Source of the DNA: Mobula hypostoma
Taxonomy: Eukaryota
NCBI RefSeq assembly: GCF_963921235.1
Contig: NC_086097.1
Coordinates: forward strand, 55,430,001-55,494,000
Reading direction: 5' to 3'
Length of the DNA: 64,000 nucleotides
Made by a program: the position numbers and the translations under genes. The stretch's first letter is position 1. Every line of letters begins with the position of its first letter. Positions 7,656 to 61,890 of this stretch are shown here, piece after piece. The notes under the pieces are model-generated. The model saw only the letters and a list, made by a program, of their open reading frames with translations. It was not told the origin of the DNA and made no database searches.

Positions 7656-10600
7656 CAATGATTCCCAAACTTTTTTGGGTTTCTGCCCTCTTGGCTCCCA
7701 GACCATTTCCCCAGCATCCCCCTTTCCTTTTCTGGCCATTACATAAAAACGGTAAAGAATTTTGATTTGCAGTACACAGTGAAAGAAAATAGTGACTGAA
7801 AATTCAAAGCAATGACAAATAATTGCAAATATTATTCAAACATATTTAAATCTACAAATACATTTATTTATTTTATTTAATTACAGTAAAGACAATTTTC
7901 ATTAACGATTCTAGAGTATCCATTAGTAGTTCAACTATTTACTGCTGCATTGCTTTTACACCTTTGAATGAGATGGATGGGTTTGGTGCAGTGGTATCAG
8001 CCTCTCAGCATTAGGCTGAATGTCACTCAGAAGGAGTCTTAGATCCTCACGTTCAGTGATTTGCAGTTTGTTTCATTGCTTTGAAAGAAGTTGGGCGACT
8101 GCACTGAAGCTGTACTCCACTAAATATGATGTTGAAAAGGCAATGAAGTACACCTAGACCCTTTTCAGTGCAGTCACAGGGTAGCGTTCAAAGATTTTCT
8201 TTCTGTAAGCAAAAGTCTTGATATGATTTTTTCGATCTGTGGCTTTAGCTCAAAGTAATTTTGTAGCGAGATCAATTCTTCCATTCTCCTGTTAATTCCT
8301 TATTTATAAGTGTTCAGGAATGGATTTATTACCCATTCTCGAATTTGGATCAAGAGAAGATCCTGAAATCTCTTTGACATGTCTTTATGCACCACACCCA
8401 GGTGGGCACAATATACTCGAAGATTGTCATCTGGTATTCTTTTTTCACTTCCAACTCAGGCTGGAAATTGGAAAAGATCATGTTGGCCAATGTTGCACTT
8501 AAATAGGATTAACATGGACAGAAATGTGGAGATGACTGATTTGACTTTGATAAGTATCTCACCATTTCCTTGCAAATGAAAATTGATTTAATTAAACCTT
8601 GAATAATTCTGACAAATAAGCAATATCATGCTTGATGTTCTTAAGTTGATTACTGAATGAAGCAGTTGAGTCTTCAAAGAATTTTAAAGCGTCTCAGGCT
8701 GTTTCATTTTGAGAGCGATCTGATTTCTGATTTTATTTACTGCTGTGATAACAGAATTTAATCATTTGTGCAGCCAATCACTTTGGTCTTTTACAACAAG
8801 ATGTCTGTGAACTACACAGTTAGGTACAGGTTTTTTTCAAGAAAGTAATGAGTCCATGGTGGCACCTTGTCATTGATGGTGCCCCATCTGTTGCACCAGC
8901 AAGAATCTTGGTGAGTGAAATGTAAGTCTCTTTGAAAAATTGTTCAACAACCCAAAATATTGATTTAGTATTTATTTATAGTCCCCTTGAAATAAGTCTT
9001 GAACCATGCTTTCATCTGTTATGAAGTGAACATAACTAAGAAGCAAAGATTTGTTCCTCGGCAAAGTTGATTCATCCAATTGCAGAACAAATTCTTTTGT
9101 CCTAAATACAGGTGTCCCCCGCTTTTTGAACGTTCGCTTTACGAAACCTCACTGTTACGAAAGACCTACATTAGTACCCTGTTTTCGCTTTCAGAAGGTG
9201 TTTTCACTGTTACGAAAAAAAATTCAGCGCGCGATAAAAGGCAGCATGCCCCGAGCAGCCGCTCTCCCCCAGATTCGGAACTGCTTTGCTTTAACATGTG
9301 CCTGTGAGCAGCCGTTTGCAAGATGAGTTCTATGGTATCGGAAAAGCCTGAAAGAGCTCGTAAGGGTGTTACACTTACGGTAAAACTAGACATAATTAAG
9401 CGTTTTGATCGTGGTGAACGAAGTAAGGACAACGTGAGTTTGGCTTGTGGAAGCTGACGAACATGATATTGAAGAGGTTTTGGCATCCCATCACCAAGAA
9501 CTGACAGACGAAGAGCTGATGCAATTGGAAGAGAAAAGGATAACAATCGAAACCGAATGAGTAATGATAAAGTACGACTTTAATCTTGAAAGGGTACGTT
9601 GGTTTAGGGGATATTTGCAGGATGGTTTGAGTCCTTATTAAAGAACTGTGTCATAGAAAAATGCGCGAGGCTCAGCAGTCAAGCAAGCCTTCCACATCAG
9701 CCACAGCAGACGATGAACCTCGACCTTCGACATCGAGGCGAGCAGAGATAGAAGAAGAGCTGCCTGCTCTAATGGAAACAGGCGACGAGATGACACCCCA
9801 GTGTCCCACCACCCCAACCCCCAGGCCACAGACAGATACCGATTCGCGGAGAATGCAAAGGTAGCCGGGAGGCACACAGCACATCTTTAAGAAAAAAGCC
9901 GAAATAAACATGCTAATTAACTAGGAGCCGCTGACACATAATTGTCGACCCAGATCAGAGACGACGCAATCGGAAATCGGCACTGATCTGGGCCGACAAT
10001 TACGGGTGACACCTAATTAATTAGCCTGTTTGTTTCGGCTTTTTTCTTAAAGATGTGCTGTGTACCTCCTGGCTACCGCTGGACCCCTGCGTTCTTCACG
10101 GCAATGTATCGCTCAGCGGCCCGGAGGGTGGGGGGCCACTGCACCACCCCAGCCTGCGACAAGTCTAACACACCATCATCAGTGTGCTCGGTGCTGTCTT
10201 CCCGATTCCCGTAAGTGATACTACACTGTACATACATTATTTCTACTTTATATAGGCTGTGTATTTTTACGTGTTATTTGGTATGATTTGGCAGCTTCAT
10301 AGCTTAAAGATTACTGGAGAGCGCTTGCGCGTGTTTCTGCCGAGAGCGCTTGCATGAGATTTTCTGCTAACGGCGCTTGCGTGCGATTTTCGCTACAGAG
10401 AGCAGTGCAGTAATGATTGTGGAAAAGTATTTCTACTTTATATAGGCTGTGTATTTATCATATCATTCCTGCTTTTACTATATGTTACTGTTATTTTAGT
10501 TTTTATGTGTTGTTTGGCATGATTTGGTAGGTTATTTTTGGGTCTGCGAATGCTCACAAAATTTTCCCACATAAATAAATGGTAATTGCTTCTTCGCTTT

Positions 10601-11149
10601 ATGACATTTCAGCTTATGAACCATTTCACAGGAACGCTTTACCTTTGGATGGCGGGGGAAACCTGTACACTGTACGATGTGCCTTCTACATTCTCAGACA
10701 TTTCATCTATTCACCTTTGAACAGAATTGTCATTGAGTGGAATCATTTTAATTATTTGGTCTGGTGACTTGTGCAAAACTGTACTCAGAACTTCTACTGG
10801 CAGAATCAGTTCTTCTCCAATTGTACAGGGCTTTCTGGATTTAACAAAGAGCAATGAAATGTATAAAGCATGTAAACCATTACTGTTTTGTTGTGTAGTG
10901 CTGGCAAAGCAGAGTCTTAGAGAACAGTGGGTTAACAAGAGGTGAAGTGATTATGAAATCATTGTAATTAATTATGAGGCACTGAGATTAAATGCTTATA
11001 ATAAGTGATTCATTTCTTAAATTAAGACTGTAATCCCTCAGCTACTACCCCTTGCTACCAAGCACCCCCCACTGCTCTCTTTATCTTTTTCATCCACTTA
11101 GAAGCTTTCACTGCCCGGGGGGTATTATCACCCATGTGGGGAACCACCT
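7656..11149 (-). mobile_element. hAT (Buster/Charlie-like) transposon with decayed transposase, interrupted by a Tigger-like element
   Basis: Ends CAATGATTCCCA... / ...GGGAACCACCT; 8-bp TSD TTCTAAAC (7648-7655) / TTCTAAGC (11150-11157). Minus-strand remnants KPCTIGEELILP, LQLDESTLP and C-terminal HQTHPSH. Confidence 0.88.
9109..10665 (+). mobile_element. Non-autonomous Tigger/pogo-like element, copy 1
   Basis: TA-flanked; TIR CAGGTGTCCCCCGC / GCGGGGGAAACCTG. CENP-B-like N-terminus (ARKGVTLTVKLDIIKRFDRGE) joined to a C-terminal remnant (EVLASHHQELTDEELMQL); DDE region absent; internal hairpin. Confidence 0.92.
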
Positions 11150-11589: not shown

Positions 11590-12420
11590 ATCAGTGATAT
11601 CGATCAATAAAACTCAGTAATATTTATTTTCTTATTCTCAGCATTATTCATTTATTTTTGTATTTGCACAGTTTCGTGTTCTTTTGCATGTTGCTCATTT
11701 GTCAGTCTTTGTTTATGTGTAGTTTTTCTTTGATTCTATTATGTTTGTTCAACTGTGAATGCCTGCAAGAAAATGAATTCATGCACCCAGAGTAGAGGTA
11801 ACACCTGGCCTCATTGAGGCAAAAGATGAACAGCTTCAGGTGTCTGGGCATCAACATCTCGGAGGATCTATCTTTGGCACAATACTTTGAAGCAATCATG
11901 AAGAAGGCATGTCAGCACTTCTACTTCATTAGGAGTGTGAGAAGATTTGACATGTCACCGAAGGCTTGTTAATATCATAGACGTACACTGGAAAGCATTC
12001 TGACAGGTTGAATCAATGTGTGGCATCAAGGGTCCAATGCACAGGCTGAAGAGAGACTGCAGAGCATTGTAGGCTCAGCCAACTCCATCACAAATTCAAC
12101 CCTCCCAGCATCAAGTAGCTAGTATCCATCATTAAAGACCCACACCATCTGGAATATATCCTCTTCTGTTGACCATCAGAGAGGAGATACTAAGCCAGAG
12201 GGCCCACACTTAATTCTCACCTTTTCCTTCAATGAGGACCAGTATGTTTTCTCTTCACCTCCTCTTCCTGTAGTCCACAGTCAATTCCTTGGTCTTGCTG
12301 ATGTTGAGTGTGAGGCTGTTGTGACGCAACTCAGTCATCCAATCTATCTCACTCCTGTTTGCCTCCTTGTCACCATCTAGATTTTGTCAACAGCAATGAT
12401 GTCATCATCATGATTGTGTC
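11590..12420. mobile_element. Rex1/Babar-like LINE 3' fragments in both orientations
   Basis: FRCLGINISEDL-type coding and CATTCTGACAGG motifs shared with 55500-56180 and 58900-59635. Confidence 0.6.
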
Positions 12421-12994: not shown

Positions 12995-13572
12995 AAGATG
13001 TTGTTTCCAGCTTGGCACTGCTGCCTGTCACACCTCCAACAGTGCCCTTAGGTCAGCTACAGGGTCATCAGCAGCTAGGGACCACCGCTCATTGATGCTT
13101 CACTCCTCTAACCGTGGTACATCTCCTGGTAGTGGAGCAGCAGCAGGTACGTCTCCCTGCCACCCCTGCACGTTTTCAAAGGGGTTAGTCGGTCCCCCAG
13201 TTTCTGTCCTTCTGCCTTAGCCACAGCCAAAAGCTGCCCTTTTCTGCCTCTTCAGCCACTTTCTGGTGGCCCTCCTGAGCCTCACTGCCATATCCTAGAA
13301 TAACTTTGTCGTTGATGCACCGATGAAGCCGTGGTATCCTACCTGATGGTCCTCCAGCCAGTTTCCTTACTCTCAGCTGCCAGGTCTGAGTACTTCAACC
13401 TCTTCTGCTTGTGGGCAACCTCCACTCCTTCCTCCCATGGGTTAGTTAACTCGATGAGGACGACTAACTTTGTGTCCATGTGTCACAGTACTCTCTCCAG
13501 GTGAAGAGATGTGGTGGCGATTTCCGTGGGAAAATGTAGCTCTCTGCTGAGATCTGTCCTCTTGTTCCACTC
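12995..13572 (-). mobile_element. HERO-like (restriction-like endonuclease) non-LTR retrotransposon 3' fragment, subfamily C
   Basis: Minus strand FPTEIATTSL...LIELTNPWEEGVEVAHKQKRLKYSDLAAE, followed by a structured 3' UTR. Confidence 0.8.
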
Positions 13573-14760: not shown

Positions 14761-15287
14761 TATCAGTCAACTTAATTGCTTCATGTATGACAGCTACAAA
14801 AAGTTCTTGGATCATTTCCTCTACAAAGGCAGTATTTGTTACAAACAGAAATTGCCCACTCAGCATATCAGGCAGCAGCTTGGAAAATGAAACAGAGTTA
14901 ACTTTTATTGTCAAAATTCCTACATAAGTTTCATTAAAAAGATAAATTCCATATTGCAGTGAGGTCTGCTTCAGATTTAGTCTCATTATGAGCAGTTGCT
15001 GTTTAATAGCTCATAAAGAACACTAGGCTAGTGTTCTAATCTGTTGTCTCAAAGTTTCTGCTGGCATTCTTAATGTCATATTTACTCCAAGGTGAAGTTG
15101 CATTTTGTTGTAGTTTTCCATCACATAGAACTATCGTTAACTGCAATGTTTTCCTTCCAAAAGACTGTTCTTTTGTTACAATACATTTTCCCCTTCACTT
15201 TATGCTGTATTCGCTCTTTCCGGTTGCCACTGACTTGTATCTTTCTTGTCCCATTCCAGTAATGGCCCTGTTCTAATAATAGCAGTA

Positions 15288-16934
15288 CAGGTTTCCCCCG
15301 CTATCCGAAGGTAGAGCGTTCCAATGAAACGGTTCGTAAGCTGGAATGTCATAAAGTGAAGAAGCAATTACCATTTAATTATGTGGGAAAAATTTGTGAG
15401 CGTTCGCAGACCCAAAAAATAACCTACCAAATCATGCCAAATAGCACATTAAACCTAAAATAACAGTTACATATAGTAAAAGCAGGAATGATATAAATGC
15501 ACAGCCTATATAAAGTAGAAATACATTTCTATAATCATTGCTGCACTGTCCACTGTAGCGAAAATCTCATGCAAGCGCTCTCGGCAGAAACACACTTTCC
15601 AGCAACCTTAAAGCTATGAAGCTGCCAAATCATACCAAATAACACATAAAAATACACAGTCTATATAACGTAGAAATAATGTATGTACAGTGTAGTATCA
15701 CTTACTGAAATCGGGAAGGCAGCGCTAAGCACACTGATGATGGTGTGTTAGGCTGAGTCGTCGGAGGTTGGGGTGGTGCAGTGGTCCCCAACTTCCAGGC
15801 CGCGGACCAATACTGATCTGCGAAGCATGCAGGGGTGCAACGGTAGCTGGGAGGCACCCAGCACATCTTTAAGAAAAAAGCCGAAATAAACAAGCCAATT
15901 AATTAGGTGCCACCCGGCACGTAAATGTCGGCCCAGATCAGAGGCGACGCAATCGGCAATTGCCCCTGACCTGGGCCGACATTTATGTGCTGGGTGGCAC
16001 ATAATAAATTAGCTTGTTTATTTTGCCTTTTTTCTTAAAGATGTGCTGCGTGCGTCCCGGCCACCGCTGCACCATTGCGTGCTTCACGGCACTGTATTGG
16101 TCCGCGGGAGGTTGGGGTGGTGGGACACTAGGGTGTCATCTCATTGTCGACTGTTTCCATCAGGGCAGGCAGGTCATCTTCTTCTATGTCTGCCTGCCTC
16201 AATGTCGAAGGTCAAGGTCCGTCGTCTGCTGTGGCTGATGTGGAAGGCTTGAAAAACGACGTATGCTTGACTGCTTAGCCTTGCGCATTTTTCTATCATA
16301 CAGTTCTTTGTAAGCACTCAAACCATCCTGCAAATATGCCCTAAACGTATGTACCCTTTCAAAGTTAAAGTCGTACTTTTCTGCAATCATTGCAGCTAAA
16401 ATCTCACGCAGTTGCTTCACGTTCAGTTCCTGGACGACTTCACTTTCAGTCCGTTCGCTACTGCATTCGGTTTCAATTGTTATCCTTTTCTCTTCCAATT
16501 GCATCAGCTCTTCATCTATCAGTTCTTGGTCATGGGATGCCAAAACCTCTTCAACATCATCTTCGTCAGCTTCCACAAGCCAAACTGACTTCGTCCTTAC
16601 TTCATTCACCACGATCACAATGCTTAATTATGTCTAGTTTTCTGCTAAGTGTAACACCCTTACGAGCTCTTTTGGGCTTTTCCGATACCGGAGAACTCAC
16701 CTTGCTAATGGATGCTCAAAATAAATCAACATAAAGCACAGATGCTCACAGGCACATGTTTAAGCAATGCCAGCTAGAATGCAGTTCTGGGGGAGGAGCT
16801 TTGCTGCTTGGGGCGCGCTGCCTTTTTTCGTAACAGTGAAAACACCTTCTGTTAGCGAAAACAGGTAACTAATGTAGGTCTTTCTTAACAGCAAGGTGTC
16901 GTAAAGCGAACGTTCGAAAAGCGGGGGACACCTG
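15288..16934 (-). mobile_element. Non-autonomous Tigger/pogo-like element, copy 2 (inverted relative to copy 1)
   Basis: TA-flanked, same TIRs as copy 1. ORF 16199-16618 (-) contains EVLASHDQELIDEELMQL; internal hairpin at ~15785-16117. Confidence 0.92.
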
Positions 16935-17079
16935 TAATACTAACAAGGGGAAAGAGATGCCATTTAATACATTAGAGATAGATTCTGATAGTTATTTTAA
17001 AAGGGAATTGGAGACTTGAAAAGAAAACAATTACAGGTCTTGAGAAAAAACAGGCAAGTGAGACAATTGAACTGGTCTT

Positions 17080-17620
17080 TCAAAGTTAAACGTATATATA
17101 TGTCACCATATATAGTCCTGAGATTCATTTCTTGTGGGCAATCCCAGTAAATCCAAGGATCTTAATAGAATCAATGAAAGACAGCACCCAAAAGGGCAGA
17201 CAAACAACAAATGAGCAAAAAACAACAAACTATGCAAATATAAAAGAGCAAAAAATTAATAATAAATATTAAGCAATAGATAGCAAGAACATGAGATGAA
17301 GAGTCCTTGAAAGTGAGTCCATAAGTTTTAGGAAAAGTTCAGTGATGGGCCAAGTGAAGTTGAATGAAGTTATTTCCACTGGCTCAACAGCCATGTTGGT
17401 TAAGGGTAATAACTGTTTCTGAACTTGGTAGTGTGAATCCAAAGGCTCCTGTACCTTCTTCCAGATGGCAGCAGCAAGAAGCGAGCATGACCTGGGTGGT
17501 GTGGGTCCCTGATGATGGATGCTGCTTTCCTGCAACAGCGCTTCATGTAGTTGTGCTCAATGGAAGGGTGGGCTTTACTCGTGATGGACTGGGATGTGTG
17601 TACTACTATTTTAAGGAATT
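17080..17620 (-). mobile_element. Rex1/Babar-like LINE 3' fragment
   Basis: KAASIIRDPHHPGHARFLLLPSGRRYRSL C-terminal motif followed by a 3' tail. Confidence 0.75.
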
Positions 17621-17833
17621 TCCATTCAAGCACCTTGGAGAATTCGTTCATACTTCCATTCAAGCAACAGGCTGCATCACCATCTGGTATTGGGGGTGGG
17701 GAGAGCTACTGCATATTATCAAAGTAAACTGCAGAGAGTTGTACAATCTGCCAGCTCCATCATGGGCCCTAGCTTGATAGTATCCAAGACATCTTCAAGG
17801 AGTAATGCCTCAAAAAGGCAGTGTCCATCATTA

Positions 17834-18745
17834 GTAGGTTCAATAGGTACATTTAATGTCAGAGAAATGTATACCATATATGTCCTGAAATTCTTTTTCT
17901 TCACAAACATCTACGAAAACAGAGGAGTGCCCCAAAGAATGAATGACAGTTAAATGTTAGAACCCCAAAGCCCCCGCCCCAGCTCCCCCCTCAAATGCAC
18001 AAGGCAATGACTGTTCCTCCCCCACCAGCAAAAAAGCATTGGTGTCCTTCACCGAGCACTCAAGCGTGCAGCAAAGCATCAATAAAGACACACACTTGCA
18101 GGACCCCAGAGACTACTCATTCACCTAGTAATTAGACATAGTACAGGCACTCTCTCTCATTAATAAGGGAAAAAGAGATGTCCCTGTTTCGCAGCAAGAG
18201 GGGAGATAAAACAAACAACTGGCTGATCTATGGTGTTAAAAGTCTGTTATGTTGCTTTTTCCGAGCCCTGCACCCAGAGAATCGACCCCGGAAAGACTCA
18301 GGTCTCTGGACACACAGCCAGCAGCTAGCCCGTTGCTCCTGAAGTTCCATGTTCCCTCGTGAGGCCTCAGTCAGTCTCCAGAGCCACGAAAATCTAGCAC
18401 CCTGAAGGTGCGCTGGTCTTCCAGGCCGTGTCCTTGGGGTATCAAAAAGTGGCCGGTCATGAGGCCCTGAGAGCGGGTCCCATTCCTGCAAAGAACTGAA
18501 GTCAGAGAGTAACTCCAGGTCAGGGTCTTGAAAAGAACCTTAAAAAGGAAAAAAAGAGATATCAAAGATAGAAATAGAGCTGCTTCGAAGATGCAAGTGA
18601 AGGAGTTCCCGTTTAGCACCATCCTGATGGTAACAATGAGAAGAGAACATGTCCAGGATGGTGGGGGTCTTAAACATTAGACCCCCAAAGCCCCCTTTCC
18701 ATCCATCTCCCCCCTCCCACGCACAAACAGCAGCAAGGCAACGAC
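17834..18745 (-). repeat. Non-coding retroposon (same family as 57535-57880) inserted in a Rex1-like 3' fragment
   Basis: Reverse complement of the 57535-57880 sequence; TCATTA duplicated at 17828-17833 and 18746-18751. Confidence 0.7.
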
Positions 18746-18831
18746 TCATTAAGGACACCCCACCACCCTGGACATGCCTTCTTTTCATTGTTACCATTAG
18801 GAAGGAGGTACAGAAGCCTGAATGCACACAC

Positions 18832-27114: not shown

Positions 27115-27865
27115 TTATACTGTGTATGTACATCTATTGGTGCTTCTGGACACATCTTCAGTGATGTCCCTGGAATCATTGGGTGTTTCGGGTCTTTCAA
27201 CATCATACAACGTCCTCCAGGTGACCCAGCTGGGGCTCATCAGACCCCAGCTTGTGTCCAGATGGCTCAGCTACTTATGATGGTCTTCAGGACCTGATCA
27301 TACCTCCACCTGTACTGTCCCTCACCAAGTGCCCTTGCACAGCCGCTGAGGATGTGCTCCAGGGTTCCTCGCTTGGAGCACAGTGGGCACGCAGATGACT
27401 CTGCCTTGCCCCATGTGTGCAGGTTTGATGGGCTTGGAAGCACATCGTACACTGCCTGGATGAGAAATTGGATGCGGTGCGGTTCAGCTTTCCAAAAGAT
27501 CAGCCCAGGTCACTTTCCTCTCAACCACATTCTCCCATCTTGTCCAAGCTCCCTGTTGCTTCATTCCCACTGCCTTGCAGGCTCTCATCTCCTCCACTAC
27601 TGCTTTCACCTCCTCCTGAACTAGACGACGCTTTTCCTTCCCCCTGGTGTCCATTTTGGGAGTTGGAAAGGATCCTAGCCCAGCTTGGCCTTGTGTGACC
27701 ACTCCCACCAGCCTCCTGTGACGGAGCCTCGCCTCTGCCTCCTGAACAGCTTCCTCTGCCCTCCACTTCCTGCCAGTACTTACTTGGATCCCTGCTCTAG
27801 CCACCTTCGGGTCACTTGAGTCCCTATACTGTAGCACTTCTCTGGCTCTTGTTACCTTGAATTCT
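27115..27865 (-). mobile_element. HERO-like non-LTR retrotransposon fragment, subfamily A (endonuclease deleted)
   Basis: TGRKWRAEEAV...QGAWTRWE, YDVLPSPSNLHTWG, zinc knuckle CPLC...HILSGC and YRWRYDQVL, followed directly by the 3' UTR. Confidence 0.88.
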
Positions 27866-29589: not shown

Positions 29590-31500
29590 TTAAAGGGTAA
29601 GAGTTATAGCAGTATATTTGTGAACAGGGTAATGAGCTTGAAGGTCAACATCATATAGGTTGAACTGAGGAACCATTTATGATGCTGATAACCCCAAACT
29701 GTTAGCCCCAAACAATCAGATAGAGAAATATAAGAAAATTAATGATAGCTTTCTGTGAACTGCAAATTTCAACTCCTAATGTGAACTGAGGTAGTAGCAG
29801 TACAAGATTTAGAAGGTGTAGAGTTGGTCTTAAAATCCATCGAGGAAACCTTTTTTTTTATCAATATGAAGCATGCTTAGATTTGTGGAGTTGGAGGGTG
29901 GTAAAGGGGTATAATAATTTAATTTTAAGGAATGAACCTGGGCAATTACAAAGGTATCAGGAGGAGAGTGTTTTGTAGACAATGGTCATAATTGAATTAG
30001 ATTAGCAGAGTTTGTGATTAAGATAAAGGTGGACTGTGAGCCAAAGTTTTAATTTAGCACAAACCTAATTTACATAATATTAGATTTAGCAAAACGAATA
30101 AAAGAGTGACTTAAAAGTAAATCAAGGCACCACACACAAAATGCTGGAGGAACTCAGCTGGCTAGGCAGCATCTGTGGAAAAGAATAAACTATCGACGTT
30201 TCAGACCAAGACCCTTCATCAGGACTGATGTGTGTGTATGTGTGTTGTTTGGATTTCCAGCATCTGCAGATTTTCTCAAAAAGCAAATCAGTGTTAGGCG
30301 AAGGTGATTTTAAGGGTTTAGAACAAATAAGTTATCAATAGAATGGATATATCCCAGGCTCGATAAGTTCCTATTTAAAGAAGAGTGCTCCAAAACATAA
30401 ACCTTATTGATGTCAGGGAACAAACAGAATAGGATAAGATATATTAAAAAAGGAAAGCTCATGACAAATATCAAAAGATAAGCACTATAGAAAACCTAGA
30501 GTATTATAAAGAGTGCAGAAGTGAGCTAAGAAGAAAATTAGCAAGGCAAAGTGGTGCATGGAAAAAAAACATTGGCGGATTAAATCAAGACAATACTAAG
30601 TTTTTAATAAATACTTTGAAAATGGCTAACAATTGAAATAGTAGTTGCAGTTAGATATCAAAGTGGGAAATTGTACTTGTCTTCATGGGAGAGGAATTAA
30701 GAGAAAGAATATAAAGTATTGGAAAAGAACAGAGAGAGAGAGAGAGAAACATGTTAGGTAGAAAAGTGCCGAGTTCTTAAAAGAAATGATAGAGAAAATA
30801 GCACAGCTTTTAATTATCATTTTCCATTCCTCTTTAGTTATATGATGGAAGTCTGGAAGATGGCTTAAATGGTACAGTTGTTTCATAAGGGAGAAAGGAA
30901 GTAATTATAGGCCAGTCAGCCCAACATTGTTAAGACAAATTCTTAGAAACATTTCTCAGAAACAATATAAATGAGCAGTTAGAGAGGCACACCTTAAAAA
31001 AAGGACAGTAAACTTGGAATTATTAAGTAATGGTTACGTTTGACTAATAACAGAATATTTTGAGGTAGAGAGGAAGATGAATAGCAAAGTGCAACTGATA
31101 GTTAGTATGAATTTTAGGAAGATATTTGACAAAGTCTCCAATGCTGGAGTGATCCAGAGAAGTCCAGGGGATGAAAAGGAAATGATCAAATTTGATTAAC
31201 AATGAGCACAGTAGAAGAAAGCAAAGGATAACAGTAATAGGGAGTTTAGCGATTTATAGCGTTAGCATTGGGATTCTGAAGTGTATGGTATTTGGTTCCT
31301 TGTGTTTGTGATATAATAATGACTTTAACTTAAAATGGGGATTGCGATGAAGAAGTATCAATGATACTAAAATTAATATAGTGGTTGCTAGTTCTGTTTA
31401 AAAGACGATAGCATGACTGGTTAGGTGGCCGCAAAGAATGAAATATAATTTAGTATGGAGAAGTGATAAATAATGCACTTAGAAAGGCCGAGCTTGATGG
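29590..31500 (+). mobile_element. Old, heavily decayed CR1 ORF2
   Basis: Residual NYRPVS (AATTATAGGCCAGTCAGC) and FDKV (TTTGACAAAGTC) motifs. Confidence 0.6.
30130..30280 (-). repeat. Penelope-derived short repeat with a minimal hammerhead
   Basis: Minus strand GTC-CTGATGA-AGGGTCTTGGTCT-GAAAC-GTC-GAT; flanks match the 3' end of 59973-61890. Confidence 0.8.
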
Positions 31501-42171: not shown

Positions 42172-42992
42172 TATATCCCAAGTTGGTATGATACATAACT
42201 TATCTCATGCCCCATGCTGCACAGAACATCGTATATCGTTTGTGAAAGAAGGCTCCAAGTCAAGGATGTACAGCGCAGGCCCACGATCAAGCATACTTTC
42301 TTCAGCCAATGATTGGTGTGTCAAGGCCGACCTGATGGGAAAGGCAGTTTCCCGGAGCTAATAGCTTTCACCACATTGCGTCCAGATATAATCGTATGGT
42401 CTGACACCAGTAGAGAAGTGGTTATTGGTGAACTCACAGCCCCCTGGGAAGACAACATCGATGAAGCCCATGAGCGCAAGTTAAACAAGTATGCAGAATT
42501 AAGGTCAGAGTGCAGAGACAGAGGGTGGAAGGTCTCATGCTATCCATTTGAAGTAGGCTGCCGTGGGTTTATTGTGTTCACTTTCCAGAAGTGGCTGTGT
42601 GACCTTGGCTTCACTAGAAGAGAGATCAAGTCAAGCAGCAGGGCTGTAGCTGAGGCAGCAGAGACAGGATCAGCATGGGTGTGGACTAAGTATGTCCAGA
42701 GGGGCAGATAGTCGGACAGTGTATACATATTTTGCAAACCCTTCAGTAGTTGCATAGGCACCTGAAGAGTAGACTATCTGTTGGATAGGAGCGACCAACA
42801 ACTCTGATAGAGGCAGATGCTGAGTTTTTAAGCTCACCAGTGGGAGGTGGTGCTTTAGCACCGCTGGCCCACCACCTCGAGGGAGTCTTGATCAGGAGTG
42901 GGCTGAAACTCCTGAAGACAGGTGGCAGATCAACTGATGATCCCACTGGTGATAGCACAGGACAGTTAACATCTTAGTCCATGTGTATTTTC
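42172..42992 (+). mobile_element. HERO-like non-LTR retrotransposon 3' fragment, subfamily B (endonuclease domain open to stop at 42711)
   Basis: TTLRPDIIVWS...GELTAPWEDNIDEAHERKLNKYAEL...PFEVGCRGF (PD-(D/E)xK-type restriction-like endonuclease), followed by a structured 3' UTR. Confidence 0.9.
42834..42952 (+). ncRNA. Candidate permuted, pseudoknotted hammerhead-like RNA with K-turn in a HERO-like 3' UTR
   Basis: GTC 42885-42887, GAAAC 42905-42909, CTGATGA 42934-42940. All flanking helices pair and covary with the copies at 27145-27262 and 13058-13170. Confidence 0.6.
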
Positions 42993-45102
42993 AATTCTTG
43001 GAGGAGAACATGGAGTTGGTGGTCCCACGTGCCTACAGTTCTTGTTTTTCTAGGCGAAGTGGGTTGTGAATTTGAGAGATGATGATGAAGAAGCCTTGAT
43101 GAGTTGCTGCAATGCTTTTGATATGTACTGCAGTCATAGTACATCTATGGTAAATGAAGAGATTGTTTACATGGAGAATAGGGTGGCTCAGTCCTGGATG
43201 TTGTAAAGCATCTTTGAATATAGTTAGAACGGCACTATCCCACCGTTGTCTGTAAGGAGTTTGTTCATTCTCCCCATGACTGCATGGGTTTCCTCCTGAA
43301 ACCCATTCCAAAGATGCATAGGTTAGTAGGTTAATTGGTTACCTGGGTGTAATTGGGTGGCACAGGCTTGCTGAGTTGGAAAGGCCTTAACCATGCTATA
43401 TCTCTACATTAAAAGATAAAGTAACAAGTATTTTATCGTACTCCTCCTTTGTACCTTAAAGATGGACTTGGAAGGCAGGAATGAGTGACACCCATCCCAA
43501 TTCCCACCCATAGGATGCCAAGTTCTTACATGCTTTTAAATTATCAAGCTTGATCAGGTTAATTTTTCAATAACCATACTTCCAGAATCATAATGTGATA
43601 AAGCCATTACCTCTCCTCTTGGAGATTGTCATTGTCCAGTAGGAGTGTGTTGTGACTGTTACTTTCCACTTATCAGCCCAAACCTGAATCTTATACAGGT
43701 CTTGTTTGCACTATCAGTGTTGCTCATTTTCTGATGAATTGTGAATAAAAACCAAACTCTATGCAATCATTACAGGCATTTCAATCTTGACTGACCTTAT
43801 GATGGAAGGTGGATTATAATTGAAGCAGTAGGAGATGAACCCTGCAGTAATATCTTGGGGCTGAGATGATTGGCCTCCACCAATTACATTTATCTATCTT
43901 TGGGATAGCTGTGAATTTAGGCAGCAGAAAGTTTTCCTCCTGGTAACCATTAATTACAGTTTTACAAGAATTCATTATTGCACAGTAGGTCAAATAAAGC
44001 AGTAATATCAAGGACAGTTACTCTTGCCTCCACTTGAAAATTTATCTCTTTGGTTCATGTGTGGGTAATGGCTTTATTGTTTGAATGCCTGATAGTCCTG
44101 GTGGAACCCAGACAGTGCATTTTGAATGTTATTAGTGACTATCTGGCACTTAATAACATAGCTGACAATCTATTCAATCATTTTGATAATTAAAAGCATA
44201 TTGATGGGTGTGAAATAAAATTTTTAAATACTGGAACTATGGATCAGGTTGGGCAGCACCTGTAGGTGCAAACCAGAGTGAACTTCTTAGTCAGTCAGTG
44301 ATTAAGGAAAATACGAAAACAAGTATGTTTTAAATTGCACAGAAAGTGGAACACGGAAAGAACAAGGGCAATGTCAATACTGGGAGGGACCAGAGTTTTC
44401 CAGTAAATCACCATGCCTGGACTTTTTGTCACAAATATTCCTGTTGTTCTCTCAACCTTTCACTTTTCTGCAACAAGAATTCTGTGGTGAAGCAGGGGCT
44501 AAATTACCAATCTAGTAATCCTGAGACTTGTGTGAACATTTTGAGGCCTGGACGATACTTGAAGGATATTTGAATGAGTATGTGGATAGGAAAGGTTTAG
44601 AGGGATATGGGCTACTCTCCGGTAAATGGGACTAGCTCAGTTAGGCAACTTGGTCAGCACAGGTAAGTTGGGCTAAAAGGCCTGTGACTCTATGTAACAC
44701 TACAAAGACTTAAAAGTTTAAATCTCAGTTTGGCAATTCGGGTAGTAATTTAGAATTTGGAAAAAAATGACAACTAATTTTGCTATGATGATCACAGAAA
44801 TTAGGATTATTGTAAAATTCATCTGGTTCATCGAAGTTTCTTGGAGTGAAGGGGGGAGCAATCTACCATCCTTATGTACTGTGGCCTATATTTGCCTTCA
44901 GGCCCACTGCATGTACACTCTGAAATGATCCACCCGACCATTAATATTAATACCCCATTAATACTACTTTCAAACAGAAAATTTGAAGGGTAGCAGCAGT
45001 TTAAGAAAGAAGTTCATTCATCACCATTTATTTCTTGGTGGTATGTAATGATGGGTAGTAAAATACTGACTTGCCCAATCAAGGTAAAAGATAAAATCTT
45101 GA

Positions 45103-53540: not shown

Positions 53541-54539
53541 GTAGGCATCATTTGTAGGTAAGCATAATAATTACCAGATCCTCCTCCATTTTTAGAAATG
53601 AATCACTTATATGGTTTGATAACAAAAGTGTGAAAAAGATGTCATTTTAAAAAATATATATTTTTGGATATGACATCACTGACAACACTAGCATTAATTG
53701 TCTCTTAATTGACCTTGCGAAGATGTTGTTGAGCTATCTTTTTGTATTACTGCAGTCTTTCGGGGGAAAATATTTTTGCAATGTCATGGGAACTGAGTAT
53801 TGCAGGTTTGGGAGATATTGTTGGAATAAACTAGCTGTGTAAATGCATTGCAAAATCTTATATGTTTTGTGTATCTTATTATTCTAAACTTTAGACATCA
53901 TCTTTCCTCACTGGTCAAATCCTTCATCCCAGAAATCAGTCAAGTAAACCTTTCTGCACCACTTCAAAAGTAAGTCTATCCCTCCTTAAATAAGAAAGCT
54001 AAAATTGTGTAAAATACTCCAGATGTGCGCACACTTAGTATAACTGTAGCAAGATTTTTTATTCTTGTACTTCATTTCTCTTATAGATGATAACTTGCTA
54101 TACTTGAATACAAACTTATGGTGTTTCTTGTCTCTCTGAATATCAATGTGTAATATCTTCATACCATTTAATTAATATTTAAATTTTTAATCTTTTATCC
54201 ACTAAAGTGATGACCACTCTCCTGTTAGACTGTTTGTGGTTAACTTATTTCTTATTCTTTCTACTTCCCTTCTAATATTTATATCTGTGCACTTGTAATG
54301 CTACTGTGACACTGATTTCCTTTGAGGTCAATAAAGTATCTATCTATCTAACCTCAAACTTCTTCATACTGTACAATATCTGCCATTTTTGTACTCACTC
54401 ACTAAACCTGTTCATATCCCTTTGCTGATTTGTGTTCTTCACAGTTTATCATTTATTTTTGTGTTACAAGCAAACCTGATGCATTAAATTCCATTCCTCC
54501 ATTTAAGTCATTAATATGGACTATAAATATGCAATTTTA

Positions 54540-56183
54540 CCAGTGCCTAAGAAGAGTTGTAAGTTGTCTTAATGACAATCGTCCAGTAGCACACACATCT
54601 ACAGTGATGAAATGCTTTGAGAGGTTGGTCATGGCTAGAATGAACTGCCTCAGCAAAGAACTGGACTCACTGCAATTTGCCTATCACCACAATAGGTCTA
54701 CTGCAGATGCAATTTCAATGGCTCTTCACATGGTCTTAGATTACCTGAACAGTTCAAACACCTATGTCAGGATGCTGTTCACTGACTATAGCTCGGGATT
54801 TAACACCATCATTCTCACAGTCCTGTTCGATAAGCTACAGAACCTGGGCCTCTGTACCTCCCTCTGCAATTGGATCCTCGACTTCCTAATTGGAAAAACA
54901 CAATCTATGTGGATTGGTGATAATATCTCCTCCTCGCTGACAGTCAACACTGGCACACCTCAGGGGTGTGTGCTTAGCCCACTGCTCTACTCCCTCTATA
55001 CCCGTGACTGTGTGGCTAAGTATAGCTCAAATGCTATCTATAAATTTGCTGAAGATGCAACTATTGTTGGTAGGTGTAGAAGCCTGAAGGCACACACTCA
55101 GTGACTCAGGAACAGCTTCTTCCCTTCTGCCATCCGATTCCTAAATGGACATTGAATCTTTGGACACTACCTCACTTTTTGTAATATACAGTATTTCTGT
55201 TTTTGCATGTTTTAAAAAATCTATTCAATATATGTAATTGATTTACTTGTTTATTTATTATTTAAAAAAATTTATTACATTTTTTCCTCTCTGCTCGATT
55301 GCATTGAGCTGCTGCTGCTAAGTTAACAATTTCAAGTCACATGCCGGTGATAATAAACCTGATTCTGATAGAATCTCAGATTGAGTTGAGAGTGCATGCA
55401 AGAGCGAGATATACTGGCTAGTTGAGTAGTATTGCAGCAACAACCACGCACTCAGTAAGGTGAAAGAGCTGATTGTGGACTTCAGGGAGGATAAGATGAT
55501 GGAACACGAACCAATCCTCAGAGGGATCAGAAGTGGAGAGAGTGAGCAATTTCACGTTCCTGGGTGTCAAGATCTCTGAGGATCTATCCTGGTCCCAACG
55601 TATCAATGCAGCTATAAAGAAGGCAAGACAGTGGCTAGATTTCATTAGGAGTTTGAAGAAGTTTGGTTTGTCACCTAAAAACACTCAAAATCTTCTATAG
55701 ATGTACCATGGACAGCATTCTGACAGGCTGCATCACTGTCTGGTATGGGGGGAGAGACTACTGCACAGGACCAAAAGAAGCTACAGAAAGTTGTAAAATT
55801 AGTCAGCTCCATCTTGGATACTGGCCTCTGTAGTATCCAAGATGTAGTGCCTCAGAAAGGTGGTGTCTATTATTAAGGACCCCTATCACCCACTTTTATT
55901 ATTGTTACCATTAGGAAGGAGGTACAGAAGCCTGAAGGCACACACACAATGATTCAGGAACAGCTTCTTCCCCTCTGCAATATGATTTCTAAATGGGCAT
56001 TGAACCCATGAACACTACCTCACTTTTTAAAATATATATTATAACTATATATCTATATGTATGTATTTACTGCAATTGATTTACTTATTTTTTTCTATGT
56101 TGTTATGTATTGCATTGTACTGATGCTGCTGTTAACAAATTTCATGACAAATGCTGGTGATAATAAACTTGATTCTGATTCTG
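54540..56183 (+). mobile_element. Rex1/Babar-like RT fragment with a nested 3' end of the same family (~55074-55368)
   Basis: [35 protein letters not shown]; tails AATAAAC(C/T)TGATTCTGA. Confidence 0.9.
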
Positions 56184-56267
56184 AAAGAGTTGAAGTCTCT
56201 GCACTGATCCCTAATGCATTCACTAGCTAATTGCTTGTTGATCTGTAAATTATCCTTTTATTGCTAC

Positions 56268-56950
56268 TGTGAGGGGATCCAGGAGTGCCCCTATTAATTG
56301 TTTGAAGAGAGACAGAGAGAGACATTTATCATTGATGGTTTGTTTGGAAAGGAGAGAGAGACAGAGTTATTTACCACTGATATGTTGCTTTTGAAAAGAG
56401 AGAGAGTAATGAAGATTAATGGTTGGACTGTCACTTTAAGGCATTGGAAGTAACTTTGGATTTCTACTGAGTCTGGAGTTGGAGACAGCACCGAGCAGCT
56501 CGAAGGTTGCTATGATGACCAAAGGCTGGTTGTTGATGTTACTTCCAAGGACTGGTTGCCTGCTTGCGCACTCCTTTACAGACAAAGGAAGGAGGGACTC
56601 TTTGAGTGACAGGTGATGCTTAGCCTGGTGAAATAAATGGGAGGTCAGATGATACAGACCTCAGGACACATGATCTGGACACTGAAGGAGCATTGTGTGC
56701 CCGCAGAGAAAGTGGGTTTTGGAGGATCGATCAGGCGGTTCGATCCAACTTGCTATTCCAGTTTGAGGAGAAGGGGTTGACTGGTGGGGAGTTGTCTGTG
56801 TGTCCACCCTCGCCTGGGTGATAGCTCCACCACAGAAGACCGGTCTCCCTGGTTAAAGTCACAGTCGATGACTTGTAAAGGACTTTGGAGGACGACGAGA
56901 AGATCGACGGCATCAGCTCACCTGAAAACTCAACTAACTAACTAACTCTC

Positions 56951-56999
<49 letters not shown>

Positions 57000-57281
57000 C
57001 CCCCCCAACTAATTACCACGAACTGAACTGAACTGAACTTTACTCAACATCGTAAGACTGTATCTTTTTACCCCTAGACTTAAAGAAGCTTGGTTTTTCA
57101 TACATATATAGATTCCACACTTACTTATATATATAATCATTACTAACCTGTTTGATTTATCTACATTTATGTTACTGTATTGCGTAGTTACTAATAAATA
57201 TTATTAGTTTATAGCAATACAAGACTCCAAAGTGGTTTCTATTTCTGCTGGTTCTTTATTCCCGTCACGGAGTACGTGACA
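56268..57281 (+). mobile_element. Solo LTR (1014 bp) containing a (CT)n tract
   Basis: TGTGA...TGACA termini; 4-bp TSD CTAC (56264-56267 / 57282-57285); AATAAA near 57193. Confidence 0.85.
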
Positions 57282-57534
57282 CTACCATTACTGAAACCTT
57301 TGCATGTTCCCATTTATTCATTTCAACTTCATGAATCTTTAGCATGTAACCTTATGTGGCTCCTTGTTAATACGGTCTAGAAATCCAAGTACTCTCTATC
57401 TTTTCTCTAACTTTTATCTGACCTGCTGCTTATTTCCTGAAATAACTTTAGGATTTTTGATAAGGCATGATTTCCCTTCCATAATACAGTATTACTTTGT
57501 TTAATATATGAAACAGAGACACCTCTTTCTCCCT

Positions 57535-57880
57535 TATTAGGGAGAGAAAGAGCCTGTGGTATATTGAATACCAGGTGAATGAGTAGTTTTTGGGGTACTG
57601 CAAGTCTGTGTCTTTGCTGCACGCTTGAGTGCTCGGTGGTGGGTGCCAATGCTTTTTTTTTGCTGGTGGGGGGAGTGGGGATCATTGCTTGCTGCCGCTT
57701 CCTTGTGGGAGGGAGGGGAGCTGGGGGGACTTTGGGGTTCTAACATTTAACTGTCATTCATTCTTTGGGGGCACTCCTCTGTTTTCGTGGATGGTTGTGA
57801 AGAAAAAGCATTTCAGGATGTATATTGTATACATCTCTCTGACATTAAATGTACCTTTGAAAAACTTTGAACTTTGAATA
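57535..57880 (+). repeat. 3' part of the non-coding retroposon family also seen at 17834-18745
   Basis: Direct sequence match in reverse complement; tail ACTTTGAACTTTGAA. Confidence 0.75.
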
Positions 57881-58069
57881 TTTTCTTAAGTGAGTTACCA
57901 CGTATTTAATAATTAATTCTAACCTTATATGAACAAGTGTTATTTGACTAACTGACCTGAAATATCTTGTTTTCTTTCAGCTTTCCTTTCTGAATAGTGA
58001 AGTTAAATTTGTTCTTTTCTAATCTTCTGGGGTCTGTCTGGAACATAATTATACAATTATGTTCCAGAA

Positions 58070-59635
58070 CGAAGGCAATAATTATACCAGTGCCTAAGAA
58101 GAATAACATGGGCTTCCTTAATTTCTATCGCCCGGTAGCACTCACATCGACAGTGATGAAATGTTTTGAGAGGTTGGTCATGACTAGACTGAACTCCTGT
58201 CTCAGCAAGGACCTGGACCCACTGCAATTTGCCTATCGCCACAAAAAGTCAATGGAAGATGCAATCTCAATGGCTCTCCACATGGCTTTAGACCACCAGG
58301 ACACCACAAACACCCATGTCAGGATGTTGTTCATCGACTATAGCTCAGCATTTAACCCCATTATTCCCACAATCCTGATTTGAGAAGTTGCAGAACATGG
58401 GCCTCTGTACCTCCCTCTGCAATTGGATCCTTAACTTCCTAACCATAAGACCACAATTTGTGCGGATTGGTGAGTCACAGAATACACGTGGACTAAGATG
58501 TTAACTGTCCTGTGCTATCACCAGTGGGATCATCAGTTGATCTGCCACCTGCCTTCAGGAGTTTCGGCCCACTTATGATCAAGACTCCCTCAAGGTGGTG
58601 ATAACATATCCTCCTTGCTGACGATCAAAACTGGCGCACCTCAGGGGTGTGTGCTTAGCCCACTGCTCGACTCTATAAACACACGACTGTGTGGCTAGGC
58701 ATAGCACAAATACCATCCATAAATTTGCTGACAATACAGCCATTGTTGGTAGAATCTCAGGTGGTGATGGGAGGGTGTACAGGAGTGAGATATGCCAACT
58801 AGTGGAGTGGTGTTGCAGCAACAACCTGGCACTCAACGTCAGTAAGACGAAAGAGCTGATTGTGGACTTCAGGAAGGGTAAGACGAAGGAACACATACCA
58901 ATCCTCATAGAGGGATCAGAAGTGGAGAGAGTGAGCGGTTTCAAGTTTCTGGGTGTCAAGATCTCTGAGGATCTGGCTTTTACCTACATATTGATGTAGA
59001 TATAAAGAAGGCAATATAGCAGCTATACTTTATTAGTAGTTTGAAGAGATTTGGTATCTCTTCGAAACCTTCTTCTATAGTTGTACCGTGGAGAGCATTC
59101 TGACAGGCTGCATCACTGTCTGGTATGGAGGGGCTACTGTACAGGACTGAAACAAGCTGCAGAAGGTTTTAAATCTAGTCAGCTCCATTTTGGGTACTAG
59201 CCTACAAAGTACTCAGAACATCTTCAGGGAGCGGTGTCTCAGAAAGGCAGCTTCCATTATTAAGGACCTCCAGCACCCAGGGCATGCCCTTTTCTCACTG
59301 TTACCATCAGGTAGGAGGTACAGAAGCCTGAAGGCAAAAACTCAGTGATTCAAGAACAGCTTCTTCCCCTCTGCCATCCGATTCCTAAATGGACATTGAA
59401 TCTTTGGACTTTACCTCGCTTTTTTAAAATATACAGTATTTCTGTTTTTGCATGTGTTTTTAATCTATTCAATATATATATACAGTAATTGATTTACTTA
59501 TTTTTAAAAAAATTTTATTTATTACTATATTTTTCTCTGCTAGTTTATGTATTGCATTGAACTGCTGCTGCTAAGTTAACAAATTTCACATCACATTCTA
59601 GTGATAATGAACCTGAATCTGATTCTGATTCTGAT
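58070..59635 (+). mobile_element. Rex1/Babar-like LINE 3' half
   Basis: [49 protein letters not shown]; tail (GATTCT)n. Confidence 0.92.
58474..58595 (-). mobile_element. 122-bp HERO-like (subfamily B) 3'-end insertion inside the Rex1 RT
   Basis: Reverse complement of ~42875-42992; TGGTGA duplicated at 58468-58473 and 58596-58601. Confidence 0.88.
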
Positions 59636-59972: not shown

Positions 59973-61890
59973 TCCTGCCCCACCGAACTCGTTTCTGCAT
60001 ACCTCGACAGGGTTTTATCCCCCCTTGATCAATCCCTTCCTACCTATGTTCGTGACACTTCTCACACTCTTAAACTTTTCGATGATTTTAAGTTCCCTGG
60101 CCCCCACCGCTTTATTTTCACCATGGATGTCCAGTCCCTATATACTTCCATCCCCCATCAGGAAGGTCTCAAAGCTCTGCACTTCTTTTTGGATTCCAGA
60201 CCTAATCAGTTCCCCTCTACCACCACTCTGCTCAGTCTAGCGGAATTAGTCCTTACTCTTAATAATTTCTCTTTTGGCTCCTCCCACTTCCTCCAAACTA
60301 AAGGTGTAGCTATGGGCACCCGTATGGGTTCCAGCTATGCCTGCCTTTTTGTTGGCTTTGTGGAACAATCTATGTTCCGTGCCTATTCTGGTATCTGTCC
60401 CCCACTTTTCCTTCGCTACATCGACGACTGCATTGGCGCTGCTTCCTACACGCATGCAGAGCTCGTTGACTTTATTAACTTTGCTTCCAACTTTCACCCT
60501 GCCCTCAAATTTACCAGGTCCATTTCCGACACCTCCCTCCCCTTTCTAGATCTTTCTGTCTCTGTCTCTGGAGACAGCTTATCCACTGATGTCTACTATA
60601 AGCCTACTGACTCTCACAGCTATCTGGACTATTCCTCTTCTCACCCTGTCTCTTGCAAAAACGCCATCCCCTTCTCGCAATTCCTCCATCTCCGCCGCAT
60701 CTGCTCTCAGGATGAGGCTTTTCATTCTAGGACGAGGGAGATGTCTTCCTTTTTTAAAGAAAGGGGCTTCCCTTCCTCCACTATCAATTCTGCTCTTAAA
60801 CGCACCTCCCCCATTTCACGTACATCTGCTGTCACTCCATCCTCCCGCCACCCCACTAGGAATAGGGTTCCCCTGGTCCTCACCTACCACCCCACCAGCC
60901 TCCGGGTCCAATATATTATTCTCCGTAACTTCCGCCACCTCCAACAGGATCCCACCACTAAGCACATCTTCCCCCCCCCCCGCATTCTGCAGGGATCGCT
61001 CCCTACGCGACTCCCTTGTCCATTCGTCCCTCCCATCCCTCCCCACTGATCTACCTCCTGGCACGTATCCGTGTAAGCGGAACAAGTGCTACATATGCCC
61101 TTACACTTCCTCCCTTACCACCATTCAGGGCCCCAAACAGTCCTTCCAGGTGAGGCAACACTTCACCTGTGAGTCGACTGGGGTGATATACTGCGTCCAG
61201 TGCTCCTGATGTGGCCTTTTATATATTGGCAAGACCCAACGCAGACTGGGAGACCGCTTCGCTGAACACCTATGCTCTGTCTGCCAGAGAAAGCAGGATC
61301 TCCCAGTGGCCACACATTTTAATTCCACATCCCATTCCCATTCTGACATGTCTATCCACGGCCTCCTCTACTGTAAAGATGAAGCCACACTCAGGTTGGA
61401 GGAACAATACCTTATATTCCGTCTGGGTAGCCTCCAACCTGATGGCATGAACATCAACTTCTCTAACTTCCACTAATGCCCCACCTCCACCTCGTACCCC
61501 ATCTGTTACTTATTTTTATACACACGTTCTTTCTCTCACTCTCCTTTTTCTCCCTCTGTCCCTCTGAATATACTGCTTGCCCATCCTCTGGGTCCCCTCC
61601 CCCCCGTCTTCCCATGATCCTCTCGTATCCCTTTTGCCTATCACCTGTCCAGCTCTTGGCTCCATCCCTCCCCCTCCTGTCTTCTCCTATCATTTTGGAT
61701 CTCCCCCTCCCCCTCCAACTTTCAAATCTCTTACTCACTCTTCCTTCAGTTAGTCCTGACGAAGGGTCTCGGCCTGAAACGTCGACTGCACCTCTTCCTA
61801 GAGATGCTGCCTGGCCTGCTGCGTTCACCAGCAACTTTTATGTGTGTTGCTTGAATTTCCAGCATCTGCAGAATTCCTGTTGTTTGCATT
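59973..61890 (+). mobile_element. Young 5'-truncated Penelope-like element (RT, Cys-rich linker, GIY-YIG endonuclease; Neptune-like)
   Basis: TMDVQSLYTSIP, GVAMGTRMG, RYIDD, LPFLD, CKRNKCYIC, GVIYC...LYIGKT...RFAEH; 10-bp TSD TCACAGGAAC (59963-59972 / 61891-61900). Confidence 0.94.
61751..61788 (+). ncRNA. Minimal type I hammerhead ribozyme of the Penelope-like element
   Basis: TAGTC-CTGACGA-AGGGTCTCGGCCT-GAAAC-GTC^GACTG; stem III reduced to palindromic ACGT. Confidence 0.85.

Follow-up and report, generated by a model that had tools for sequence, protein, structure and literature searches.

A kink-turn conserved in the stem III extension of a hammerhead-like RNA from a REL retrotransposon

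In a family of non-LTR retrotransposons with REL-type endonucleases, the 3' untranslated region (UTR) contains a hammerhead-like RNA whose stem III is predicted from sequence to be extended through a kink-turn (k-turn). The motif is kept in most of the lineages compared, and we consider it probable, from comparative evidence and a coarse geometric model, that it acts there as a protein-independent structural elbow. The k-turn itself is textbook, and what is new is its setting in a hammerhead-like retrotransposon RNA. One copy lies in the window (the whole stretch of DNA that was analysed, 64,000 nucleotides), and its features are collected in Table 1 together with those of related copies nearby.

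Table 1. Positions in the window of the retrotransposon copy, its predicted RNA elements and related k-turns
Feature	Position	Strand	Details
RT + CCHC + REL-endonuclease non-LTR retrotransposon copy, subfamily A	42196-42999	+	5'-truncated, frameshifted
C-terminal ORF segment	42328-42711	+	REL endonuclease motifs (PD..E..K); stop 42709-11
Helix Y, upstream strand	42834-42845	+	pairs with 42941-42952
Hairpin H, four-way-junction arm	42846-42865	+	predicted
Helix X, upstream strand	42866-42871	+	pairs with 42899-42904, directly 5' of GAAA
k-turn non-bulged strand	42872-42880	+	NC helix 42872-77 (6 bp), 3n C42878, G2n 42879 (opposite A2b 42918), A1n 42880 (opposite G1b 42917); from sequence
Stem III / C helix strand	42881-42886	+	U16.1 = 42886, then C17 = 42887; from sequence
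Stem I strand	42888-42893	+	pairs with 42928-42933
Helix X downstream strand and core GAAA	42899-42908	+	GAAA = G12-A15.1, 42905-08
k-turn bulged strand, proximal	42908-42916	+	C helix 42908-13; L1-L3 = GAA 42914-16
k-turn bulged strand, distal	42917-42925	+	G1b/A2b 42917-18, 3b C42919, NC helix 42920-25
Linker, stem I strand, core, helix Y strand	42926-42952	+	2-nt linker; stem I 42928-33; CUGAUGA 42934-40; helix Y 42941-52
Second subfamily-A copy	58545-58598	-	truncated at NC helix; decayed k-turn, with G at A2b and U for C at 3n
Subfamily-B k-turn	13082-13135	-	5-bp C helix, AAU bulge, 3b:3n G:G, 4b C or U against A
Subfamily-C k-turn	27169-27221	-	6-bp C helix mismatched in window copy, AAU bulge, 3b:3n U:G

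The element and its copy in the window

A first look at the 3.5-Gb genome gave 1543 candidates for the subfamily-A repeat. Long copies measure about 3.87 kb and encode a reverse transcriptase (RVT_1, E 3.9e-16), a CCHC knuckle and a C-terminal PD..E..K endonuclease (REL domain), which are the features of the R2 superfamily (REL); zf-RVT stayed below the cut-off when profiles were matched to the element protein. The motif is situated about 160 nt 3' of the REL ORF stop codon. A search for related loci found no relatives in viral contigs or genome contigs. The element is putatively a HERO-like non-LTR retrotransposon, HERO being a clade named in PMC7650587.

The first-pass annotation had placed a k-turn at 42872-42925, and on re-reading the sequence every letter of it was found there. 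The pattern is the standard one, with a 6-bp C helix, a GAA bulge, tandem G.A/A.G pairs and C:C at 3b:3n; the -1b:-1n pair is U:G. Two strings that had been quoted from other subfamilies were also located, at 27186(-) and 13098(-), each with a GA opposite (27214-13 and 13125-24). In the window copies of these subfamilies, B and C, the C or NC helix contains mismatches, and a strict k-turn descriptor passes over these copies. Rfam returned no match across the window at the gathering threshold.

Taken by itself, the window copy carries little weight. The strict descriptor matches the window once (42872-42925) and 20 shuffled versions 1.05 times on average, so that the single match is at chance level, and it is the conservation across lineages that stands above chance. 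This copy is also dead and truncated, and is predicted to misfold. Its changes at 42895-96 (where G is found in 4/30 and 3/30 copies) perfect an inverted repeat with 42908-15 and create a competing hairpin, which replaces the C helix in the predicted minimum-energy fold (-24.1 kcal/mol). The majority-type copy L025, unlike the window copy, is predicted to fold the C helix; both predictions are nested folds that take no account of pseudoknots, but the window copy would make a poor substrate for tests. The changes within 42893-42915 resemble a template-switch (quasi-palindrome) correction, and few copies share them, one of these lying about 650 kb off (C1:54824746). As a separate observation, the A2b of subfamily A falls within a DRACH context (42916-42920), DRACH being the m6A motif, and methylation to m6A within the core of the k-turn is thus conceivable in principle.

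Conservation across lineages

Copies within one subfamily only echo their master, and for this reason independent lineages were gathered by protein, namely 80 metagenome loci and further subfamilies of this genome. The RNA descriptor then applied contained no k-turn term. In its strict form it was positive in 29 of the 80 metagenome loci, many of the others stopping before the UTR, and a looser form contributed degraded copies, three of which (L118, L123 and L126) were left unscored. An unrooted tree of 49 REL-domain rows over 138 columns was split by eye into 29 lineages. Five loci were dropped as another motif (L037, L038, L180, L209, L211) and three had too short a protein for the tree (L040, L045, L200); L196 was left out of it, and L135, with a long branch and a doubtful motif, was retained among the 29 as a miss.

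A complete k-turn is found in 22 of the 29 lineages, against a null mean of 0.73 and a maximum of 5 (20,000 draws, in which the nine loop letters were redrawn from the composition of the motif's unpaired bases). The pattern noted earlier in other subfamilies is thus conserved far beyond this genome, but not universally, as seven lineages lack it. Where present, it has the 3-nt bulge, G1b and A2b opposite A1n and G2n, a Watson-Crick C helix and an NC helix beyond, and it lies at a fixed 5-6 bp from the hammerhead core. When the register is set by pairing alone, GA faces GA in 32 of 37 k-turn-class rows, and the other five are off by one base. These five account for the 4-5 parsimony changes at positions 1b, 2b, 1n and 2n, compared with 11-16 at L1-L3, 3b and 3n. 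In a MAFFT alignment made from sequence only, using 16 rows chosen for their 6-bp C helix, G15, A16, G53 and A54 are invariant.

Both flanking helices covary. RNAalifold independently predicts a 6x3 loop with both helices flanking it and double changes in 8/12 pairs, and both sides have changed in 11 of 16 named pairs. Cells are paired in 92.9% of cases versus 73.6% after shuffling and 38-47% after sliding, controls that are not probabilities as the rows are related. The conserved k-turn is real on the strength of these covarying helices and the 22 lineages, despite the chance-level match in the window. One could still argue for a chance match within a decayed repeat, as shuffles yield one strict match per 64-kb window just as the real sequence does and the copy there is a dead one with a predicted misfold; at the level of the family this is refuted by the distance of 22 lineages from the null maximum and by the covariation, and it is scarcely credible.

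Four of the seven lineages without a k-turn have instead a bulge of 4-7 nt on the opposite strand (L104, L078, the L074 group and the L071 group, nine rows together). These keep the two helices, have no G.A pairs, and show a spacing of 17-22 nt from GAAA to CUGA. The possibility that they contain a k-turn in reversed orientation was rejected on inspection by eye. Of the other misses, the 3-nt bulge of L076 lacks GA, the motif of L106 seems degenerate, and L135 is the doubtful one. The window subfamily groups among the bulge-class rows on unstarred branches, and the distribution of the k-turn needs three changes on the unrooted tree. The conserved feature is an interruption of stem III, roughly half a helical turn away from the core, to which the k-turn is the commonest solution. 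There are precedents for such replacement, since in RNase P and the lysine riboswitch a different hinge takes the place of the k-turn in some lineages (PMC5061560). As in RNase P, with its k-turn and pk-turn, and in the lysine riboswitch, some lineages of the element have a substitute without G.A pairs, which may be kinked; here it is the 4-7 nt bulge on the opposite strand. The 29 lineages provide natural material for testing Lilley's folding rules, including a natural swap between k-turn and opposite-strand bulge.

A hammerhead-like RNA around the k-turn

The C helix of the k-turn is stem III of a hammerhead-like fold whose other parts are recognisable in the sequence around it. The blocks follow the S-G-C order of the type-SGC hammerheads, with CUGAnGA, GAAA, UH and stems I and III. 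A canonical stem II, formed between the C block and the G block, was looked for and rejected, there being no contiguous pairs in 25 of the 29 lineages and at most two in any. Helix Y joins the strand 3' of CUGAnGA to an upstream partner, and helix X joins the strand 5' of GAAA to another upstream segment. Hairpin H lies between Y and X, and in the least decayed lineages at most a few unpaired bases separate the helices. A four-way junction of Y, H and X thus appears to stand in place of stem II.

With the hammerhead core as model for a cut 3' of C17 (PMC10085705), the predicted site of cleavage and ligation is 3' of 42887. The core letters are near-invariant over the tree, the descriptor having selected for those letters. 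Lacking the canonical stem II, this hammerhead-like core may not cleave. An alternative reading is that the tandem G.A loop lends stability or flexibility to a scaffold that has no catalytic function, such as a recognition signal for the reverse transcriptase, with neither a tight k-turn nor a ribozyme. Besides the missing stem II, it has in its favour that a plain bulge of 4-7 nt is enough in four lineages and that L076 manages with three bulged nucleotides and no GA. A generic joint would not need the finer rules that are obeyed here, however (a 3-nt bulge, a purine at L2, no G:C at -1, a non-Watson-Crick 3b:3n), and a scaffold without catalysis sits poorly with the near-invariant core, even allowing for how that core was selected. 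We regard this reading as improbable, and prefer a tight k-turn serving as an elbow.

Hairpin H often carries a conserved UGAUC-like sequence in its loop, above a variable stem (L084, L088, L089, L217, L085, L087, L109, L188). This sequence may take part in a tertiary contact or be bound by a protein; in subfamily A the loop is one of 4 nt.

Geometry of the elbow

In a hammerhead, stem III points away from stems I and II, yet in this RNA the strand leaving stem III would have to enter stem I directly through a short linker (2 nt in the window copy). A kink of about 50 degrees would return the NC helix to stem I and helix X, so as to form an outer three-way junction. The 3' strand of the NC helix reaches stem I across the 2-nt linker, and helix X passes into the 5' strand of the NC helix across 0-1 nt. 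In all 22 k-turn lineages the C helix has 5 or 6 bp, and 23-25 nt separate GAAA from CUGAnGA. In an axis model, coarse in that it uses stem angles of 110-140 degrees for the hammerhead and no atomic coordinates, the NC helix would lie 58-65 Å from the end of stem I if stem III ran straight, 13-25 Å if kinked in phase, and 40-42 Å if kinked out of phase. The linker reaches 31-38 Å in the same model, which a straight extension exceeds. Such a constraint on phase is consistent with the fixed length of the C helix and the 23-25 nt spacing.

The first-pass annotation had proposed that the kink folds stem III back so that the distal ends of stems I to III meet. The fold-back fits the fixed spacing and the axis model, but the partner at the outer junction is helix X and not stem II. 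Eckert et al. (2023, PMC10085705) noted the distance that separates distal stem III from the stem I/II side in the crystal structure, and left unexplained how the gap is bridged in some SGC hammerheads. A conserved k-turn at fixed phase would be, for this family, a concrete answer to their stem III geometry problem.

Folding in ions or with a protein

Whether a k-turn folds in Mg2+ alone depends on its 3b:3n pair. Those with C at 3b or G at 3n do so, and Watson-Crick and G.U pairs do not (PMC4382518; the rules are also given in PMC5061560). SAM-I k-turns use ion-folding pairs, and those of U4, which await 15.5K, are non-folding in 97% (PMC4382518). In the element, ion-folding pairs occur in 18 of the 22 k-turn lineages, as against 6 of the 16 possible pairs (binomial figure 2.7e-5, which overstates independence as the lineages are related and were delimited by eye). 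The other four have poorly folding or unfavoured pairs (A:U, U:A, U:U, A:C). The bias towards non-folding pairs that goes with dependence on 15.5K or L7Ae is thus not found. A G:C pair at -1b:-1n blocks folding (PMC8191799), and it is absent from the 22 lineages, which have C:G (17), U:G (4) or U:A (1). The folding test in that paper covers the four Watson-Crick pairs at -1, and the U:G of the window subfamily is not among them. Going by these letters, the k-turn is predicted to need only Mg2+, and no dedicated protein, in order to fold. An architectural role is favoured because of the ion-folding 3b:3n pairs, the lack of a blocking G:C at -1, and the lineages that do without the motif.

It has been suggested for slow SGC ribozymes that helper proteins assist them (Eckert et al., PMC10085705), and the k-turn might mainly be a protein site or switch, to which SNU13/15.5K, L30, SBP2 or the protein of the element's own ORF must bind in order to fold, protect or regulate the RNA. 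L7Ae-family proteins recognise G1b and G2n, both fixed in 22/22 k-turn lineages, and the GAA loop of the window subfamily is the loop of Kt-7 (PMC3884654). The loop letters point the same way in part, with a purine at L2 in 22/22 lineages (and at L1 in 18/22) and U at L3 in 16/22. A U at L3 could reflect a protein pocket, as in 15.5K/U4; the window subfamily has A. On the other side, protein-dependent k-turns such as U4 favour non-folding 3b:3n pairs (PMC4382518), which the 18 ion-folding lineages do not, and the four lineages with a bulge but no G.A pairs at the same place imply that no single k-turn-binding protein is essential family-wide. A mainly protein-directed role therefore seems unlikely to us. 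Recruitment of SNU13/15.5K had first been suggested as a possibility for this site; an obligatory 15.5K/L7Ae partner is disfavoured by the 3b:3n distribution and by the lineages without a k-turn. Binding in vitro is probably to be expected from L7Ae-family proteins, as for most k-turns, but they are probably not required. The elbow reading is retained below.

The predicted cut and the ends of copies

The strands of the k-turn flank the predicted cut (42872-86 and 42908-25). Together with helices X and Y, the kinked helix would clasp both ends of the cut transcript and so favour re-ligation, and, more tentatively, the re-ligated circular RNA might then be reverse-transcribed. Twenty loci of the element were examined for signs of a circular template. 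In each of the six that extend as far as the 5' UTR, the sequence runs on upstream across one constant junction and into the element's own tail, for roughly 14 to 280 nt. The extensions in L223 and L224 pass upstream of C17, and so could not have been templated by a linear RNA starting at the cut. The head-to-tail junctions fit a circular template; they also fit read-through of a tandem array or self-targeted insertion.

No scar is seen at the predicted cut: when the first 100 of 836 exact-match copies were judged by eye, not one started at 42888. About 89 of these 100 read through the cut, a pattern that also suits the non-catalytic scaffold considered above, and about 11 have their 5' junction within 42860-42904. 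It follows that the templates were unbroken at C17, whether through re-ligation, as in a circle, or because no cut had been made. It is possible, though we hold it only tentatively, that the replication of this autonomous animal retrotransposon passes through a circular RNA, which a knotted hammerhead with a split core would close. In this reading the k-turn elbow would enable the non-circular wiring and clasp the cut ends for ligation, and some lineages would have exchanged it for an undescribed kink module, the opposite-strand bulge of 4-7 nt.

Assembled contigs from four runs show a rise in depth near 42900-42915 in two, with loose ends at 42909 and not at the predicted cut, in a type of data that cannot show RNA ends. 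In two runs guessed to be RNA, contig depth is high over the last 80 nt (42909-42990) and the sequence ahead of 42909 is foreign, which suggests that a chimeric transcript is abundant or that a short element has the same tail; similar short tails occur at L229, L235 and L236. Five of the approximately 11 truncated copies among the first 100 of 836 begin within 42875-42880, in the non-bulged strand of the k-turn, as do 58600(-), L163 and L216. These starts coincide with a 6-bp palindrome, which makes microhomology as likely a cause as a structural stall. In one copy (G000:C2:18772687-18772763) the 42872-42895 segment is inverted ahead of the rest, as in a twin-priming inversion.

Relation to known systems

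The k-turns of SAM-I, Kt-7 and Actinomyces-1 (PMC5061560, PMC4382518, PMC8191799) share with that of the element the 3-nt bulge, the G1b.A1n and A2b.G2n pairs and the Watson-Crick C helix; the window k-turn also has the C:C at 3b:3n of the ion-folding Actinomyces-1 (N1 class). As with SAM-I-type k-turns, the family is biased to ion-folding pairs and its role would be architectural. Unlike SAM-I and Kt-7, the k-turn predicted here sits in a retrotransposon fold resembling a small nucleolytic ribozyme, with its strands on both sides of the predicted scissile bond, and in the window subfamily it has U:G at -1. The U4 snRNA and box C/D k-turns (15.5K/SNU13) have the same core letters, often with U at L3, but need protein and do not fold in ions.

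The type-SGC hammerhead HRIMA-1 (PMC10085705) has the same S-G-C order and core letters, and likewise a short linker that connects stem I with the strand preceding GAAA. In contrast to the SGC hammerheads of that paper, the C and G blocks of the element are unpaired with each other and stem III is extended through the k-turn; those ribozymes come from metatranscriptome RNAs, and the host of the element's RNA is an animal retrotransposon. A keyword search of the paper and its supplement for "kink" and "k-turn" gave 0 occurrences. Retrozymes and Penelope-like elements use circularly permuted hammerheads. These are further cases of hammerheads in retroelements, with circular RNA intermediates in retrozymes (PMC4918200, PMC5680766), from which the present element differs by being autonomous (RT/REL) and by its knotted core and k-turn. 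No open-access paper on a k-turn in a natural hammerhead, or on a hammerhead in HERO tails, was found in a search mostly of titles and the beginnings of abstracts.

If the elbow is as proposed, this would be a natural k-turn within a small nucleolytic ribozyme. A working ribozyme would point to circular-RNA replication in a REL retrotransposon, and would offer a scaffold with a built-in L7Ae handle, in an element related to the R2 elements now used in genome engineering.

Other repeats in the window

An abundant and different repeat, in which CUGAnGA is followed by a short stem and GAAAC, lies at 30198-30222(-) and 61756-61780(+), as well as in L209, L211 and many rows of further subfamilies. 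This is the conventional order of a minimal hammerhead, with two matches in the window and none in 100 shuffles, and in L211 the repeat lies inside an inverted repeat. A long inverted duplication (9107-10668 and 15285-16936, 82-93% complementary) encloses the subfamily-B copy. Decayed copies of another LINE-like repeat are found at 54400-59630, 11800-12150 and 17400-18830, and the subfamily-A fragment near 58 kb sits inside one such copy.
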